A DNA stretch of 43,870 nt from Escherichia phage AnnaReinhart_Bas75. A program made the translations under genes and the position numbers. Positions 5,112-38,500 of this stretch are shown one piece after another; the first letter of the stretch is position 1, and each line of letters begins with the position of its first letter. The notes under the pieces were generated by a model. The model searched no databases, had not been told where the DNA came from, and saw nothing but the letters and a program-made list of their open reading frames with translations. The stretch is from sequence record PQ850596.1; one strand, given 5' to 3'.

Positions 5112-5138
5112 TTTTCACCTCCTGTTTAAGTTAACTGA

Positions 5139-5167
5139 ATAGTACCCTATTATATTGGGGTGTGCAA
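5139..5167 (-). promoter_or_regulatory. sigma70-like promoter TTGCAC-N17-TACTAT containing palindrome AATAG-N4-CTATT
   Basis: Read on minus strand: TTGCAC accccaatataataggg TACTAT, then AGGAGG RBS and ATG of 4908..5111. Near-identical to sites at 14262, 37025 and 38441. Confidence 0.6.
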
Positions 5168-14233: not shown

Positions 14234-14261
14234 AATTATTTCCTCAGTAAGTTACATGTGA

Positions 14262-14290
14262 ATAGTACCCTATTATATTGGGGTGTGCAA
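14262..14290 (-). promoter_or_regulatory. sigma70-like promoter TTGCAC-N17-TACTAT with AATAG-N4-CTATT palindrome
   Basis: Identical 29-bp core to 5139..5167; drives minus-strand cassette 14233..12484. Confidence 0.6.
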
Positions 14291-36067: not shown

Positions 36068-36136
36068 TGTATAATCCTTATGCTTACTTTGATGATTTGT
36101 ACTTTAGCCCCGACGTTCTGGCGTTGGGGTTTCTTT

Positions 36137-36427
36137 TTACCGTTTAGCCAACCCTTCCAGCAAATTTTTATACTCTTCAAAATATTCCTCGACCAAATCA
36201 TCGCCGAAATAGAAGTCGATATACTCGAGATTATCTCTTACGTTAAGCGATGCCGACATGGTGCTTAGTTGGCGTAAGCTAATTAGCTTCATTTCTGTTT
36301 CTACGCAGAAAGGCCGGTAGGTATCAAGATGGCAAGAGATATTGAAGCATAAAGCGAACTCTCCGGCCACGGAGTGAACCATATACACTTCGTTTTCTGC
36401 TTTATTGTGGAAAATTACGCCTTTCAT
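36137..36427 (-). CDS. hypothetical protein (96 aa)
   Basis: Start overlaps stop of upstream HTH gene; acidic C-terminus. Confidence 0.5.
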   Translation of the reverse strand: MKGVIFHNKAENEVYMVHSVAGEFALCFNISCHLDTYRPFCVETEMKLISLRQLSTMSASLNVRDNLEYIDFYFGDDLVEEYFEEYKNLLEGLAKR

Positions 36428-36606
36428 TTCACGTTCTCCTTAATCCATGCTTCGACTTTATTACGGTCAAATGTTCCCGGTAAACGGCGGCCCATAACCT
36501 TAATACAGCAGTCAGGGAATTTGCCGCTGCGCAACCAGTTATTAATCGTCTGACGTGTCACCCCGATACGTTCAGCTACTTCATTCTGCGTCATATAATG
36601 CGACAT
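36424..36606 (-). CDS. AlpA/excisionase-type HTH DNA-binding protein
   Basis: 60 aa from ATG 36606 (CAGGAGATATAAAAATG); motif TQNEVAERIGVTRQTINNWLRSGKFP. ORF-track version extends to 36720 but lacks RBS. Confidence 0.6.
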   Translation of the reverse strand: MSHYMTQNEVAERIGVTRQTINNWLRSGKFPDCCIKVMGRRLPGTFDRNKVEAWIKENVK

Positions 36607-36703
36607 TTTTATATCTCCTGTTTGTTTGGTGAAACTGAGTATAGGATAGCGGGAATGTAAAAGCAACCAATCTCTGTAATATTTAATCTTTACAAAAATG
36701 TTA

Positions 36704-36733
36704 TTGAAAGTTCTTGACACATGTTTGTATAAT
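36704..36733 (+). promoter_or_regulatory. candidate sigma70 promoter TTGAAA-N18-TATAAT
   Basis: Good -35/-10 with 18-bp spacer; no protein-coding gene follows for about 350 bp. Confidence 0.4.
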
Positions 36734-36757
36734 GGTTTTGGGACTTGTATATATTAC

Positions 36758-36795
36758 GGAGTTGACGAACCCTCCCCGAGGGATTCGTCAACTCC
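36758..36795 (+). other. long inverted repeat / RNA hairpin (17 bp stem with one bulge, CCC loop)
   Basis: GGAGTTGACGAA-CCCTC ccc GAGGG-a-TTCGTCAACTCC read directly from sequence. Confidence 0.6.
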
Positions 36796-36932
36796 TCCCA
36801 GACAGCTGAGATGCTTGCCTTGGGGTTTAAGGATAAGTGTATCTAAATCTCATTTAAAGAAGTAACCCGCTGAAATATCTACTGTTTCTTAATGTGCCGT
36901 AGATTCGCAACCGTAAAAATGTAACGATTATT

Positions 36933-36955
36933 GGGCAGGCTTAAGCCTGCCCTTT
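36933..36955 (+). terminator. hairpin GGGCAGGC-ttaa-GCCTGCCC followed by TTTAGTT
   Basis: Perfect 8-bp stem, plus-strand orientation, in a non-coding region. Confidence 0.5.
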
Positions 36956-37024
36956 AGTTACCAAGTAATAAGAATAAAGGCACAACCCTCCCCGAAGAAT
37001 CACAACGGCAACGTAACTATTCTC

Positions 37025-37053
37025 TTGCACACCCCAATATAATAGGATACTAT
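37025..37053 (+). promoter_or_regulatory. sigma70-like promoter TTGCAC-N17-TACTAT with AATAG-N4-CTATT palindrome
   Basis: Near-identical to 5139 and 14262 copies; followed by CGAAACGAGA leader, AGAGGAG RBS and ATG 37088. Confidence 0.6.
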
Positions 37054-37087
37054 TCACTTATCGAAACGAGACAGAGGAGTGGTGGTT

Positions 37088-37279
37088 ATGTTTAAGAAGG
37101 GTCAGTTGATTAAAACGATGTACGGTAGCTTAGGTATTATTGAAAAGAAATCGGCAGTGTACCGAAGTTCTTATGTCGTTAGCTTACTCAGGGAGCACGG
37201 GTTAAGTTCCGCGGCGTATTACCAAGAGTATGAAATGAAACTAATTGGCAACAATTTTAAATTCAAAGGGGTGAAGTGA
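37088..37279 (+). CDS. hypothetical early protein (63 aa)
   Basis: First gene after promoter 37025; RBS AGAGGAG. Confidence 0.5.
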   Translation: MFKKGQLIKTMYGSLGIIEKKSAVYRSSYVVSLLREHGLSSAAYYQEYEMKLIGNNFKFKGVK

Positions 37280-37494
37280 TGGAAGAATTAATTTGTATTG
37301 AATCCCGCCAGGATGTGCAGGATTGGTTTGTGAAAGGTAACAAATATTCGTCAGGAGTATATTACGACGGCCGTCGATACGTTTTAGATGAAGACGGTGA
37401 TGAATGGGATTTAGAGGACACTGTGGGCGAGACTTTAACCGTTAGTTTTCTTCAATGTTGTTTCCGCATCATTCACAACGGCGCCGAATCATGA
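37279..37494 (+). CDS. hypothetical early protein (71 aa), acidic
   Basis: ATG overlaps upstream stop; RBS AAAGGGG. Confidence 0.5.
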   Translation: MEELICIESRQDVQDWFVKGNKYSSGVYYDGRRYVLDEDGDEWDLEDTVGETLTVSFLQCCFRIIHNGAES

Positions 37495-38440: not shown

Positions 38441-38469
38441 TTGCACACTAAGATAGAATAGGCTACTAT
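38441..38469 (+). promoter_or_regulatory. sigma70-like promoter TTGCAC-N17-TACTAT with AATAG-N4-CTATT palindrome
   Basis: TTGCAC actaagatagaataggc TACTAT; followed by ACAAACGAGAGGAG leader and ATG 38501. Confidence 0.6.
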
Positions 38470-38500
38470 TCATTTACACAAACGAGAGGAGAGACGGAAG

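Follow-up and report, generated by a model that had tools for sequence, protein, structure and literature searches.

Organization of the intergenic region

The window analysed here is the 43,870-nt (43.9-kb) sequence of Escherichia phage AnnaReinhart_Bas75 (PQ850596.1), a Kagunavirus with 99.8% identity to phage Bas76 over 901 bases. Between two divergent gene blocks it contains a gap with a GC content of 42%, compared with about 51% for the genome. One side of the gap is bounded by a minus-strand AlpA-like HTH gene, whose product matches HTH_17 and is one of two HTH regulators encoded nearby (HTH_3, HTH_17); the gap is also adjoined by a primase-helicase gene with an AAA_25 domain, which forms part of the replication module. 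From the other side runs a plus-strand unit that continues through holins, endolysin, terminase, and head and tail genes. This unit had originally been described as a plus-strand early block, a label that proved too narrow, as the unit is not simply early: it reaches the lysis and structural genes, and an operator-bearing promoter of its own precedes it. The features of the locus are as follows:

36604-36606, minus strand: start codon (CAT) of the HTH gene
36607-37087: intergenic gap (481 bp), between the start codon of the minus-strand HTH gene and the ATG of the first plus-strand gene
36638-36668, minus strand: divergent promoter TTGCTT-N17-TATACT of the AlpA-like HTH gene, read from the sequence
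36704-36733, plus strand: P1, sigma-70 promoter TTGAAA-N18-TATAAT, score 11/12
36758-36795, plus strand: H1, 5' stem-loop of 17 pairs with a bulged A and a CCC loop
36796-36892, plus strand: middle segment of the type I 5' module, from an alignment of 8 type I sequences
about 36818-36823, plus strand: variable patch in this middle segment
36873-36884, plus strand: joint motif AAATATCTACTG, site of module exchange
36893-36985, plus strand: core allele A, a near-invariant block of 93 nt
36933-36952, plus strand, with a tract to 36959: terminator-like GC hairpin GGGCAGGC-TTAA-GCCTGCCC followed by TTTAGTT
36984-36995, plus strand: second copy of AACCCTCCCCGA, in the linker joining the core to the 3' motif
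36995-37017, plus strand: 3' motif AAGAATCACAACGGCAACGTAAC
37025-37057, plus strand: P2, TTGCAC-N17-TACTAT, a phage promoter family member directly upstream of the first plus-strand gene
37041-37054, plus strand: palindromic operator AATAGGATACTATT within P2
37088, plus strand: ATG of the first plus-strand gene

The features listed in the original prediction were all recovered at their coordinates and exceed chance expectation, and its statement that a gap of about 480 bp holds no credible ORF agrees with the 481 bp found here, in which no ORF is supported. Two small minus-strand ORFs (33 and 38 aa) are annotated within the gap in the GenBank record of Bas76, and the program-listed ORFs of the gap span 31-55 aa, including a 55-aa ORF on the plus strand. 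These annotations speak for a translated product, but we consider one extremely improbable: no PHROG family was found for any of the small gap ORFs, the 55-aa ORF begins upstream of the -35 element of P1, and the ORFs are broken in relatives both by indels that are not multiples of three and by the swapping of whole modules for unrelated sequence. Furthermore, the most conserved block (36893-36985) carries stop codons in every frame, as read from the sequence, and the locus is non-coding in every version among the relatives.

Promoters and the phage operator

The plus-strand promoter claimed at 36704-36733 is present and above chance, with near-consensus hexamers and a spacer in the 16-18 nt range of sigma-70 promoters. 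Sites scoring at least 11/12 number four in the whole window, compared with 0.42 expected from Markov simulations, and P1 is the sole plus-strand site among them. Its start site would lie at about 36740, and a -10-like TATATT, read from the sequence, occupies about +11 to +16 of the predicted transcript. The minus-strand TTGCTT-N17-TATACT promoter that had been assigned to the AlpA-like gene was likewise found, at about 36668-36638. A strong plus-strand promoter occurs at the equivalent position in all relatives, within surrounding sequence that is non-homologous between module types; the equivalents read from these sequences include TTGACT-17-TAAGCT and TTGACA-17-TAAGTT or TAAGGT, and a further one is TTGACA-16-TAAAAT.

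P2 is conserved, precedes the first ribosome-binding site by 30 nt and belongs to a family whose 19-mer is present in 6 copies in the window, compared with 0.01 expected. The operator (AATAG-N4-CTATT) has 7 exact copies in the window, every one at a promoter; it is present at P2 and at three strong minus-strand promoters and absent at P1. Since P1 is the only strong promoter that lacks this phage operator, it should fire constitutively from the onset of infection.

Predicted structure of the candidate RNA

The two best local hairpins of the genome both lie within 200 nt downstream of P1: H1 is the top-ranked local inverted repeat of the window, and the GC hairpin is the best perfect one. As a whole, the segment 36740-36960 folds on the plus strand with an energy of -77.2 kcal/mol (z = -5.9), while the minus strand of the same segment folds nearly as well (z = -5.4). 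The 17-bp hairpin of the original prediction is present at 36758-36795, but its full length is peculiar to this genome. T36793, at the base of the stem, is C in Bas76 and in all 7 other sequences carrying the module, and the resulting A-C mismatch breaks the lowest three pairs in all relatives, so that the conserved stem is 14 bp long (36761-36792). The loop carries a C36777T change in two relatives. No covariation supports H1, since the 8 sequences of the type I 5' module hardly vary; in module types II, III and IV the same position is taken by a main hairpin that does covary. A direct repeat of 12-13 bp had also been noted, and both copies of AACCCTCCCCGA are real in this window, where it occurs exactly twice (36768 and 36984; about 0.18 matches expected allowing one mismatch). 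The repeat is, however, not conserved: the second copy is altered in every relative, and the linker that holds it is shortened or deleted in loci L196 and L206 and in the Jerseyviruses.

Core allele A is 92-100% identical among the fetched loci, and a 141-nt query that contains it is covered to at least 80%, at 82-100% identity, by 331 out of 386 records of Salmonella and E. coli phages. The block is closed by a helix of TGTGCC (36893-36898) with GGCACA (36979-36984) plus ATTC with GAAT, to which the full-length fold gives a probability of 0.95. Further in, GTAAC (36921-36925) and GTTAC (36957-36961) form a helix that lengthens the GC hairpin. Across 17 distinct core A sequences 98.8% of cells pair, one pair only covaries and 19 of the 25 pairs never vary; the apical C-G pair of the GC hairpin is replaced by a compensated U-A in 5 of the 17, and the hairpin loop varies freely. 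In one relative (L141) the closing helix is lengthened to 14 nt. Cores folded in isolation are slightly more stable on the minus strand.

The GC hairpin resembles an intrinsic terminator in its 8-bp stem (7 GC), 4-nt loop and tail TTTAGTTACC, in which 5 of 8 positions are T. Its U tract is interrupted after three U (UUUAGUU), a sequence that is invariant in the 17 distinct sequences and differs from the uninterrupted 3' U tail (about 6 or more) of the Hfq type. A plus-strand terminator is also called in allele A relatives and, independently, in the GenBank annotation of fBC-Eco01; among the other core alleles it is marginal in C, and none was detected by the scan in B. The terminator-like hairpin claimed at 36933-36955 is thus confirmed as a hairpin, but a 3' end cannot be placed firmly at 36955, as the near-invariant block continues 30 nt beyond the U tract, to 36985, and closes only in a longer RNA. 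Conservation past the U tract is better matched by a longer RNA, or by a role at the DNA level, than by a product cleanly ended at 215 nt.

Downstream of the core, the 3' motif contains ACAACGGCAA, which all three core alleles (A, B and C) share. ACGGCA (37005-37010) in this motif is the complement of TGCCGT (36895-36900), a hexamer with which each core allele begins at its 5' edge, and a stem between the two is predicted in cores folded alone. We rejected this pairing as a universal closing stem: its probability is at most 0.03 in full-length folds, and the heptamer TTGCCGT/ACGGCAA is common genome-wide, with 26 copies that are not concentrated at promoters.

Exchange of modules and strand-specific covariation

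A layout of strong plus-strand promoter, hairpin-rich non-coding stretch, core with a GC hairpin and operator-bearing promoter is shared by about 100 fetched loci, in which 4 unrelated 5' modules are joined to 3 unrelated core alleles. The combinations found are I+A, II+B, II+C, III+A, III+B and IV+B, and the joint motif, as TAAGTATCTGAT or AAGTCACTGAT, is seen in all module types. The 5' modules and core alleles recombine freely. The 5' modules are replaced wholesale, yet none lacks the strong promoter or the long irregular hairpin. Core alleles vary independently of gene 1 type, of HTH protein type and of the primase N-terminus, and the primase N-termini that accompany the three alleles are 98-99% identical; the notion that the variable core is a recognition site of the primase, the HTH protein or the gene 1 product was discarded, as none of them co-varies with the core allele. 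Scans of viral contigs with a 17-mer and a 19-mer yielded few new genomes and no new core allele, and the matches of a 14-mer scan were nearly all due to chance.

The folding and covariation check in relatives gave a clear result for modules II and III. One pair of the module II stem occurs as UA, AU and CG, accompanied by two invariant G-U pairs, and RNAalifold scores the module at -20.8 on the plus strand versus -12.8 on the minus strand. In module III, the outer stem of the main hairpin has one pair that is G-C in 11, A-U in 8 and U-A in 4 sequences; none is broken, G-U occurs in 5 sequences, and the variants with G-U pairs fold 4-7 kcal/mol better on the plus strand than on the minus strand. 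These compensatory changes and G-U pairs, found in two of the 5' modules of relatives, work only on the plus strand. The allele of the window itself offers less, with covariation in 1 of 25 core A pairs and none in H1.

A proposed structured early transcript and its alternatives

The reading that we consider most likely, and to which we would give about an even chance, is that the gap encodes a short, structured, early non-coding RNA, transcribed from the plus strand by the host polymerase, of about 215 nt or somewhat longer. What the original prediction of a structured small RNA retains is the position of the promoter and the non-coding nature of the locus, joined now by plus-strand covariation in relatives; its 17-bp stem, its repeat and its 3' end did not hold in the form proposed. 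In the mechanism we envisage, host sigma-70 RNA polymerase would initiate at P1 near 36740, and the transcript would fold into the 5' stem-loop at 36758-36795 and, beyond the variable middle segment, into the conserved 3' domain (36893-36985). The GC hairpin and U-rich tract (36933-36959) would halt a large share of polymerases, giving an RNA of about 215 nt that is hairpin-capped at both ends, while a fraction may extend a further 30-60 nt and allow the conserved domain to close. The same stop signal may also shield P2 and the long plus-strand operon from constitutive transcription out of P1. The RNA itself would be the functional product, presumably acting in trans, with its near-invariant core as a platform that binds a protein or another RNA.

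Several observations sit uneasily with an RNA gene, namely the unvarying H1 and core A pairs of its own allele, the broken U tract with a terminator absent from allele B and marginal in C, and the comparable (for isolated cores slightly better) folding of the minus strand. A crude duplex search for phage mRNA targets in the translation-start regions of 81 phage genes returned a best energy no better than that of shuffled RNA.

A possible though unlikely alternative is that P1 is the true early promoter of the plus-strand unit of about 30 kb, and that its 340-nt leader acts in cis as a control element. Under this reading the GC hairpin might be a terminator to be overridden, as in lambda pR'-tR' with Q or with the HK022 put RNA, which needs no protein, or the long-range stems TGTGCC/GGCACA and TGCCGT/ACGGCA might form an RNase III-type site at which the leader is trimmed. 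The order of holins, endolysin, terminase and head and tail genes in the unit favours such a leader, and the same lysis-then-structural order is found downstream of lambda pR'. The conserved block and its closing helix, which is longer in L141, are present only in read-through RNA because both extend past the U tract, and the early TATATT recalls the sigma-dependent pause used by Q proteins. But no Q-like or N-like protein was found in a Pfam scan, not exhaustive, of 15 neighbouring proteins; the plus-strand genes have in P2 a conserved promoter of their own; core allele does not covary with gene 1 type; and the early -10-like element is missing from the other module types, just as the TGCCGT/ACGGCA stem is from full-length folds. 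An improbable reading places function in the DNA instead, with P1 as a decoy or spare, the GC hairpin as an insulating and possibly bidirectional terminator, the conserved blocks as sites of HTH proteins, and the RNA without function. Two HTH regulators are indeed encoded nearby, the operator palindrome is reused at promoters across the genome, the 3' motif lies at about -45 to -65 relative to P2, which is a typical activator position, and in allele A the extended hairpin is followed by AUUUUU on the minus strand. Protein sites, however, do not explain the covariation and strand-specific G-U pairs in the 5' modules of relatives, nor do they sit well with modules that keep a strong promoter and a long irregular hairpin through wholesale exchange or with a TTGCCGT/ACGGCAA heptamer spread across the genome. 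The minus-strand signal could alternatively end a small RNA of about 115 nt transcribed from core A, starting at about 37028 and ending at about 36912. A weak promoter-like TCGATA-N17-TATATT lies at 37064-37036, the extended hairpin with its run of five U makes a better terminator than that of the plus strand, and isolated cores slightly favour minus-strand folding. We hold such an RNA to be very improbable nonetheless: the promoter scores only 9/12 (its conservation is uninformative, because it lies inside the conserved P2 sequence), alleles B and C lack a minus-strand U run, and one-sided changes in the closing helix give U-G on the plus strand in two cases and are compatible with the minus strand in one.

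The original prediction had left room for a replication origin. In such a model P1 transcription, through the transcript or the act itself, would open the DNA or prime synthesis beside the primase-helicase gene, with the hairpins and inverted repeats serving as signals in DNA or in single strands. We regard this as quite unlikely, having found no positive support for it, although the setting is suggestive: the two gene blocks diverge here, beside the replication module, the GC content of the locus is low, and it has a strong promoter without a protein product, as transcription-activated origins typically do. Cumulative GC skew reaches its minimum at 36-37 kb, as an origin would predict, but this signal is confounded, because transcription changes direction at the same place. 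In L141, a quasi-palindrome correction further suggests that the inverted repeats interact at the DNA level at least occasionally. Against these points, DnaA boxes are represented at the locus only by two DnaA-like sites with one mismatch each, set against a background of 55 such sites genome-wide; IHF sites are absent, as is any AT-rich unwinding stretch other than the promoter region (78-80% AT); and there is no iteron array or family of at least three repeats beyond CCTCCC(C/A)GA 9-mers. Core allele and primase show no covariation, near-identical primase N-termini accompanying all three alleles, and one-strand G-U pairs in the modules of relatives argue for RNA rather than a cruciform. A persistent R-loop would probably be unfavourable, because the RNA is C-rich (CCCUCCCC) rather than G-rich.

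Relation to known systems

Searches of Rfam 15, whose families include the C4 antisense RNA, 6S, Y RNA-like, tmRNA and known phage RNAs, returned 0 matches for the whole window at the gathering threshold, only noise (E = 1.9-3.6; about 17 bits or less versus thresholds of 48-67) for 36400-37300 under permissive settings, and 0 matches at E <= 1 for 8 loci with other module types. No tRNA or tmRNA was found, and no homology to E. coli chromosomes or plasmids besides one PLSDB record, itself probably a phage genome. The literature searched on Guernseyvirinae, Kagunavirus, Jerseyvirus and MB78 does not describe the region and holds no transcript data for this locus in any phage of the subfamily; the fBC-Eco01 paper lists predicted promoters and terminators only, and one transcriptome paper on a Kagunavirus gives gene-level counts only. 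Time-course RNA-seq is publicly available for phage vB_Eco_K1B4 (PMC12645636).

Among known systems, the locus is like lambda pR'-tR', with its 194-nt '6S' RNA, in combining a strong promoter, a non-coding RNA of about 200 nt, a terminator and a long lysis-then-structural operon; the arrangement of promoter, terminator within about 200 nt and late operon is that of a lambda Q module, and the -10-like sequence in the early transcribed region extends the likeness. It differs from the lambda system in that no Pfam antiterminator domain was found in the 15 proteins around the locus, a second, operator-bearing promoter lies between terminator and genes, and the leader consists of unrelated, interchangeable cassettes. 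The HK022 put RNA, an antiterminator that acts in cis, similarly places stem-loops just downstream of an early promoter and before a terminator, where they would act on their own polymerase, but put is about 70 nt with two defined stems, whereas the locus has several modules over about 250 nt. The P1/P7 c4 and P4 CI leader RNAs (Rfam C4, RF01695) are also leader-derived phage RNAs with allelic specificity variants; unlike them, the RNA predicted here has no Rfam match, and these phages are virulent and lack an immunity system. The origin of lactococcal phage c2 carries a non-coding early transcript, comparable to ColE1 RNA II and the T4 R-loop origins. There too, in a virulent siphovirus, divergent transcription units flank non-coding DNA with a strong early promoter whose transcript is, here by prediction, highly structured, whereas the locus is without iterons or DnaA boxes and its core allele is independent of primase type. 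Like a generic bacterial sRNA gene, the locus has a sigma-70 promoter and no ORF, its predicted RNA of about 215 nt begins with a hairpin, and a GC hairpin trailed by a U-rich tail stands at the 3' end; but the interrupted U tail is poor for Hfq, conservation continues past the tail, and the target search was negative.

Kagunavirus and Jerseyvirus phages are often isolated, are used in therapy and biocontrol work and are represented in the BASEL model collection, and their early regulation is undescribed. Bas74-76 were isolated on an E. coli K-12 host of the O16-restored type without cryptic prophages. If the RNA is real, it would be the product of the genome's only operator-free, near-consensus plus-strand promoter and would for that reason probably be among the earliest and most plentiful products of infection, from a locus that is conserved in about 390 sequenced phages. 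The swapping of unrelated structured modules, with at least 4 kinds of 5' module and 3 core alleles, between otherwise near-identical phages, each allele being near-invariant across Salmonella and E. coli phages, resembles the pattern of an arms race. A rather unlikely extension is that the Guernseyvirinae carry a cassette-like early RNA locus whose product serves as a decoy for a host factor or defence protein, or reprograms RNA polymerase without a protein, with alleles that differ in specificity. Through the exchange of cassettes, allele swaps are available in nature with which the partner of the RNA could be sought, and the division of the genome between operator-bearing and operator-free promoters offers an initial model, open to testing, of how the subfamily times its gene expression.

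Other resemblances at the locus were followed up. Masking of the gene 1 ribosome site by CCUCC-type leader tracts with anti-Shine-Dalgarno character was considered, given the complementary tracts in several alleles, and was set aside as unsupported because the same core alleles occur with different gene 1 ribosome sites. The RfaH ops element GGCGGTAG occurs nowhere on the plus strand of the window, its two reverse-complement copies lie far from the locus, and the ops-like GCCGTAG at the edge of the core has the wrong base at an essential position. By eye, alleles A and B also contain a boxA-like sequence, part of which lies inside a stem.

Location and signals of the intergenic region

The 901 bases around the locus share 99.8% identity with Escherichia phage VerenaMeyer_Bas76, and as much with vB_EcoS_XY2, both Kagunavirus-type siphoviruses of the Guernseyvirinae; no similar sequence was found in E. 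coli chromosomes. The Bas76 gene map holds two transcription units. The minus-strand unit is a replication/recombination module, which includes a primase-helicase with an AAA_25 domain and ends at an AlpA-like HTH gene immediately left of the gap, while the plus-strand unit starts right of the gap with about 14 small genes, two holins, an endolysin and further small genes, and then wraps around to the terminase, head, tail and tailspike genes. At 36106-36131, two small minus-strand genes are separated by an 11-bp hairpin with TCTTTTT behind it; in the relative fBC-Eco01 the annotation marks its equivalent as a terminator for each strand. A PLSDB entry, CP088689.1 (44,086 bp, from an E. coli isolated from blood, 'non-mobilizable plasmid'), matches only over the 3' motif and the edge of promoter P2; its length is that of a Kagunavirus genome, and the record is probably a phage genome entered under plasmids.

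Principal features of the locus
36607-37087: gap between the divergent units, 481 bp
36704-36733, plus strand: promoter P1, TTGAAA-N18-TATAAT
36758-36795: long hairpin
36933-36952, plus strand: GC hairpin followed by TTTAGTT
37025-37057, plus strand: operator-bearing promoter P2

Every feature listed in the original prediction, which had proposed a structured non-coding RNA of ~215 nt or a replication origin, was recovered at its coordinates. P1 matches at 11/12 positions; 4 sites in the whole window score 11/12 or more, where Markov simulations predict 0.42, and besides P1 these are three minus-strand promoters within the replication module (TTGACA-N17-TATAGT, 11/12, spacers almost identical; 33437, 30888 and 27323). 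The GC hairpin is the best perfect local inverted repeat of the genome, and a terminator scan calls it, with its TTTAGTT, on the plus strand. A host promoter and a terminator have already been machine-annotated at the positions of P1 and the GC hairpin in one relative, fBC-Eco01 (GenBank record; methods: PMC9825357).

The long hairpin, the top-ranked local inverted repeat of the genome, has the predicted 17 pairs, with one bulged A and a CCC loop, and its 17-bp length proved private to this genome. Position 36793 is T in the window and C in the Bas76 GenBank record and in all 7 other sequences of the same 5' module type; C gives an A-C mismatch three pairs above the stem base, and the conserved stem is therefore 14 bp. 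T36793 alone creates the 17-bp stem, and the window thus differs from the deposited Bas76 sequence. Similarly, the direct repeat AACCCTCCCCGA does occur twice in the window, both copies at the locus, but every relative has a different second copy and some have lost its linker, so the repeat is not a conserved feature. RNA 36740-36960 has a predicted fold of -77.2 kcal/mol (z = -5.9); the opposite strand folds nearly as well (z = -5.4), since each of the two big hairpins is close to a perfect palindrome.

The absence of a credible ORF was borne out, as no conserved ORF is present in any version of the locus. The window's small ORFs have no PHROG family, indels among relatives are not multiples of three, and stop codons interrupt all frames of the most conserved block. 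A coding reading of the gap is not supported, and a translated small ORF is the least probable of all the explanations weighed here, close to negligible. Two minus-strand ORFs in GenBank, Bas76_0055 and Bas76_0056 (window 36690-36791 and 36941-37057), are not conserved, lack a PHROG family and are probably spurious calls.

Proposed division of labor between P1 and P2

P2 belongs to a 35-bp promoter family, CTTGCACACCCCAATATAATAGGnTACTATTCAC, located 25-30 nt upstream of ribosome-binding sites, of which two copies serve small minus-strand islands within the structural gene block. All promoters of this family, together with the three strong minus-strand promoters, contain the palindrome AATAG-N4-CTATT, found with at most one mismatch at 12 sites (0.9 expected).

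Copies of the P2 family and its palindrome
5135-5153 (minus), 14258-14276 (minus), 37039-37057 (plus), 38455-38473 (plus): close copies of the family
33412 (plus), 33456 (plus): weaker copies of the family
5138, 14261, 27300, 30865, 33414, 37041, 38457: 7 exact palindromes, all inside promoters
33458, 41600, 3335: palindromes with one mismatch

The motif had been found by PHIRE in fBC-Eco01 and assigned to a phage RNA polymerase (PMC9825357). No such polymerase is listed in the annotated Bas76 genome, and the palindrome resembles an operator, bound by one or other of the phage's two HTH regulators and defining a regulon.

P1 is the one strong promoter without this operator. P2 lies 30 nt from the first plus-strand ribosome-binding site and P1 ~350 nt upstream, separated from the plus-strand genes by the best GC hairpin of the genome. 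The operator is on P2 and absent from P1, and thus the plus-strand genes own a regulated promoter. This arrangement, in which a strong unregulated promoter and an intervening GC hairpin precede genes with a promoter of their own, is the main reason for regarding the P1 transcript as an independent product, and the hairpin as an insulator besides a 3' end.

Mosaic organization across relatives

Similarity searches confined wide conservation to the right half of the gap, which 386 phage records share, the majority of them Salmonella Jerseyviruses or E. coli Kagunaviruses, while the left half, which holds P1 and the long hairpin, is present in ~20 close relatives. We fetched ~100 homologous loci, drawn from metagenomes and viral contigs as well as phage records, and anchored them on a motif common to all; together they show the gap to be a mosaic whose layout is fixed.

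Layout of the locus, 5' to 3' on the plus strand
Element 1: strong promoter
Element 2: 5' module, 150-225 nt, four unrelated kinds (type I, carried by the window; II and II', GC-rich; III, Jerseyviruses and some Kagunaviruses; IV, the K1ind2 kind)
Element 3: short joint motif TAAGTATCTGAT / AAGTCACTGAT
Element 4: core, ~95-125 nt, three unrelated alleles
 A: the window's allele, 36893-36985
 B: GGGGTGGGC-TAAC-GCCCACCC enclosed by AGAGTAC/GTACTCT
 C: (CTCA)n microsatellite, GGTGCC-TTCG-GGCACC and CGTTTCGTTTCG
Element 5: 3' motif AAGAATCACAACGGCAACGTAAC, 36995-37017
Element 6: promoter P2

The module promoters are TTGAAA-18-TATAAT, TTGACT-17-TAAGCT, TTGACA-17-TAAGTT or TAAGGT, and TTGACA-16-TAAAAT. 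Modules and cores were seen in the combinations I+A, II+B, II+C, III+A, III+B and IV+B, with no fourth core allele among the ~100 loci. A, B or C is carried by phages whose HTH protein (98%) and primase N-terminus (98-99%) are nearly identical to those of the window; the modules thus recombine independently of the flanking genes. Each core allele is extremely conserved in itself: core A retains 92-100% identity in the fetched loci, and 82-100% across Salmonella and E. coli phages whose neighboring sequence is not alignable.

Several variants accompany this mosaic. Core C carries ~4 or 7 copies of (CTCA)n depending on the phage (L009 versus L012, L013 and L016), and one core B phage (L021) has a GTGA expansion directly after the TGCCGT edge; such simple-sequence length variation is unusual for a phage regulatory region. 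Some Jerseyviruses, including Salmonella phage PhiSEP1 (L199) and GE_vB_M4 (L201), have a second non-coding unit downstream, with a GAATAAAGGCAC repeat, another GC hairpin and ACGGCAA...TTGCCGT flanking the next gene's ribosome-binding site; in GE_vB_M4 a deletion between two GAATAAAGGCAC repeats has removed the P2 region. The Jerseyvirus records MT074473 (blauehaus), NC_073219 (sidste) and MT074484 (celemicas) start inside core A, at differing equivalents of window 36891-36914, which look like assembly or rotation choices, not physical genome ends.

Evidence for constraint at the RNA level

Covariation in relatives, named as a check in the original prediction, is clear in modules II and III, those variable enough for a test of covariation and strand, and much weaker for the window's allele. 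In module II, RNAalifold gives a hairpin plus a long stem in which one pair occurs as UA (6 sequences), AU (3) and CG (2); two G-U pairs are invariant and several U-A pairs have changed to U-G, all of which would read as C-A mismatches on the opposite strand, and the consensus energy is -20.8 on the plus strand versus -12.8 on the minus. The main hairpin of module III has a highly variable interior and a retained outer stem, GUAAR/YUUAC, in which one position is G-C in 11, A-U in 8 and U-A in 4 distinct sequences with none broken, and another is G-U in 5; among variants with G-U pairs the plus strand outfolds the minus by 4-7 kcal/mol. These compensatory changes and one-strand G-U pairs show the stems to be maintained in plus-strand RNA, the transcript of the P1 equivalent. 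A regulatory region acting as DNA only is improbable, and a minus-strand RNA very much more so.

Few positions vary among the 8 distinct type I sequences, and the long hairpin therefore has no covariation either for or against it. The core A structure (TGTGCC/GGCACA closing helix, ATTC/GAAT, GTAAC/GTTAC and the GC hairpin) was tested on 17 distinct sequences: pairing holds in 98.8% of cells, yet 19 of the 25 pairs never vary. One pair covaries (apical C-G to U-A in 5 sequences), three more changes are one-sided and still paired on the plus strand (U-G or G-U), and the remainder are mismatches. The edges of the conserved block coincide exactly with the closing helix, which has a probability of 0.95 in the predicted fold of the full read-through RNA; it lies 3' of the U tract, and therefore exists only if transcription passes the terminator. 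In one metagenomic locus (L141, IMGVR_UViG_3300045988_019953), the equivalent of 36972-36984 has changed from GAATAAAGGCACA to GAATCTACGGCACA, so that a helix with interruptions becomes 14 nt of unbroken complementarity to TGTGCTGTAGATTC at the 5' edge of the core, which looks like a templated quasi-palindrome correction. Alleles A, B and C also have a TGCCGT/ACGGCA complementarity in common, which is predicted to pair in folds of isolated cores and not in full-length folds; the heptamer is common genome-wide, and the complementarity is noted here as a bare observation.

Proposed function and alternatives

We give even chances to the reading that the locus is a gene for an early, structured non-coding plus-strand RNA whose stop shields the operon. 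Host polymerase would fire at P1 at once, transcribe first the 5' stem-loop and later the conserved core domain, and stop largely at 36953-36959 to leave an RNA of ~215 nt; some fraction would extend to ~36985-37020, where the core domain can close. The stop would keep constitutive transcription from the operator-controlled operon. The near-invariance within alleles, together with the free swapping of unrelated alleles among near-identical phages, suggests that the RNA has a specific macromolecular partner. A crude duplex search for trans-acting base-pairing, covering every translation-start region of the phage, scored no better than shuffled controls. The locus matched no known RNA family in Rfam, which has no model for it, and no description of its transcript, RNA structure, origin or mosaic nature was found in the literature searched. 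Early phage non-coding RNAs or leaders with promoter, hairpins and terminator are familiar; the unusual part is the cassette-like allelic exchange.

The strongest competitor, though distinctly less probable, is a cis-acting element, either a leader subject to antitermination or a processing element, since the plus-strand operon resembles the lambda gene order 3' of pR' and the conserved domain requires read-through; against this, a scan of 15 proteins revealed no domain like Q or N, and with P2 present the genes need no leader to be expressed. Transcription-activated replication origins require few sequence signals, and the cumulative GC skew does reach its minimum at the locus, as the origin proposed in the original prediction would have it. 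However, this minimum is confounded with the switch of transcription direction, DnaA/IHF boxes are not above background, there is neither an iteron array nor an AT-rich stretch apart from the promoter, the core allele varies independently of the primase, and the one-strand G-U pairs speak against cruciforms. An origin is unlikely, if slightly less so than the DNA-only region.
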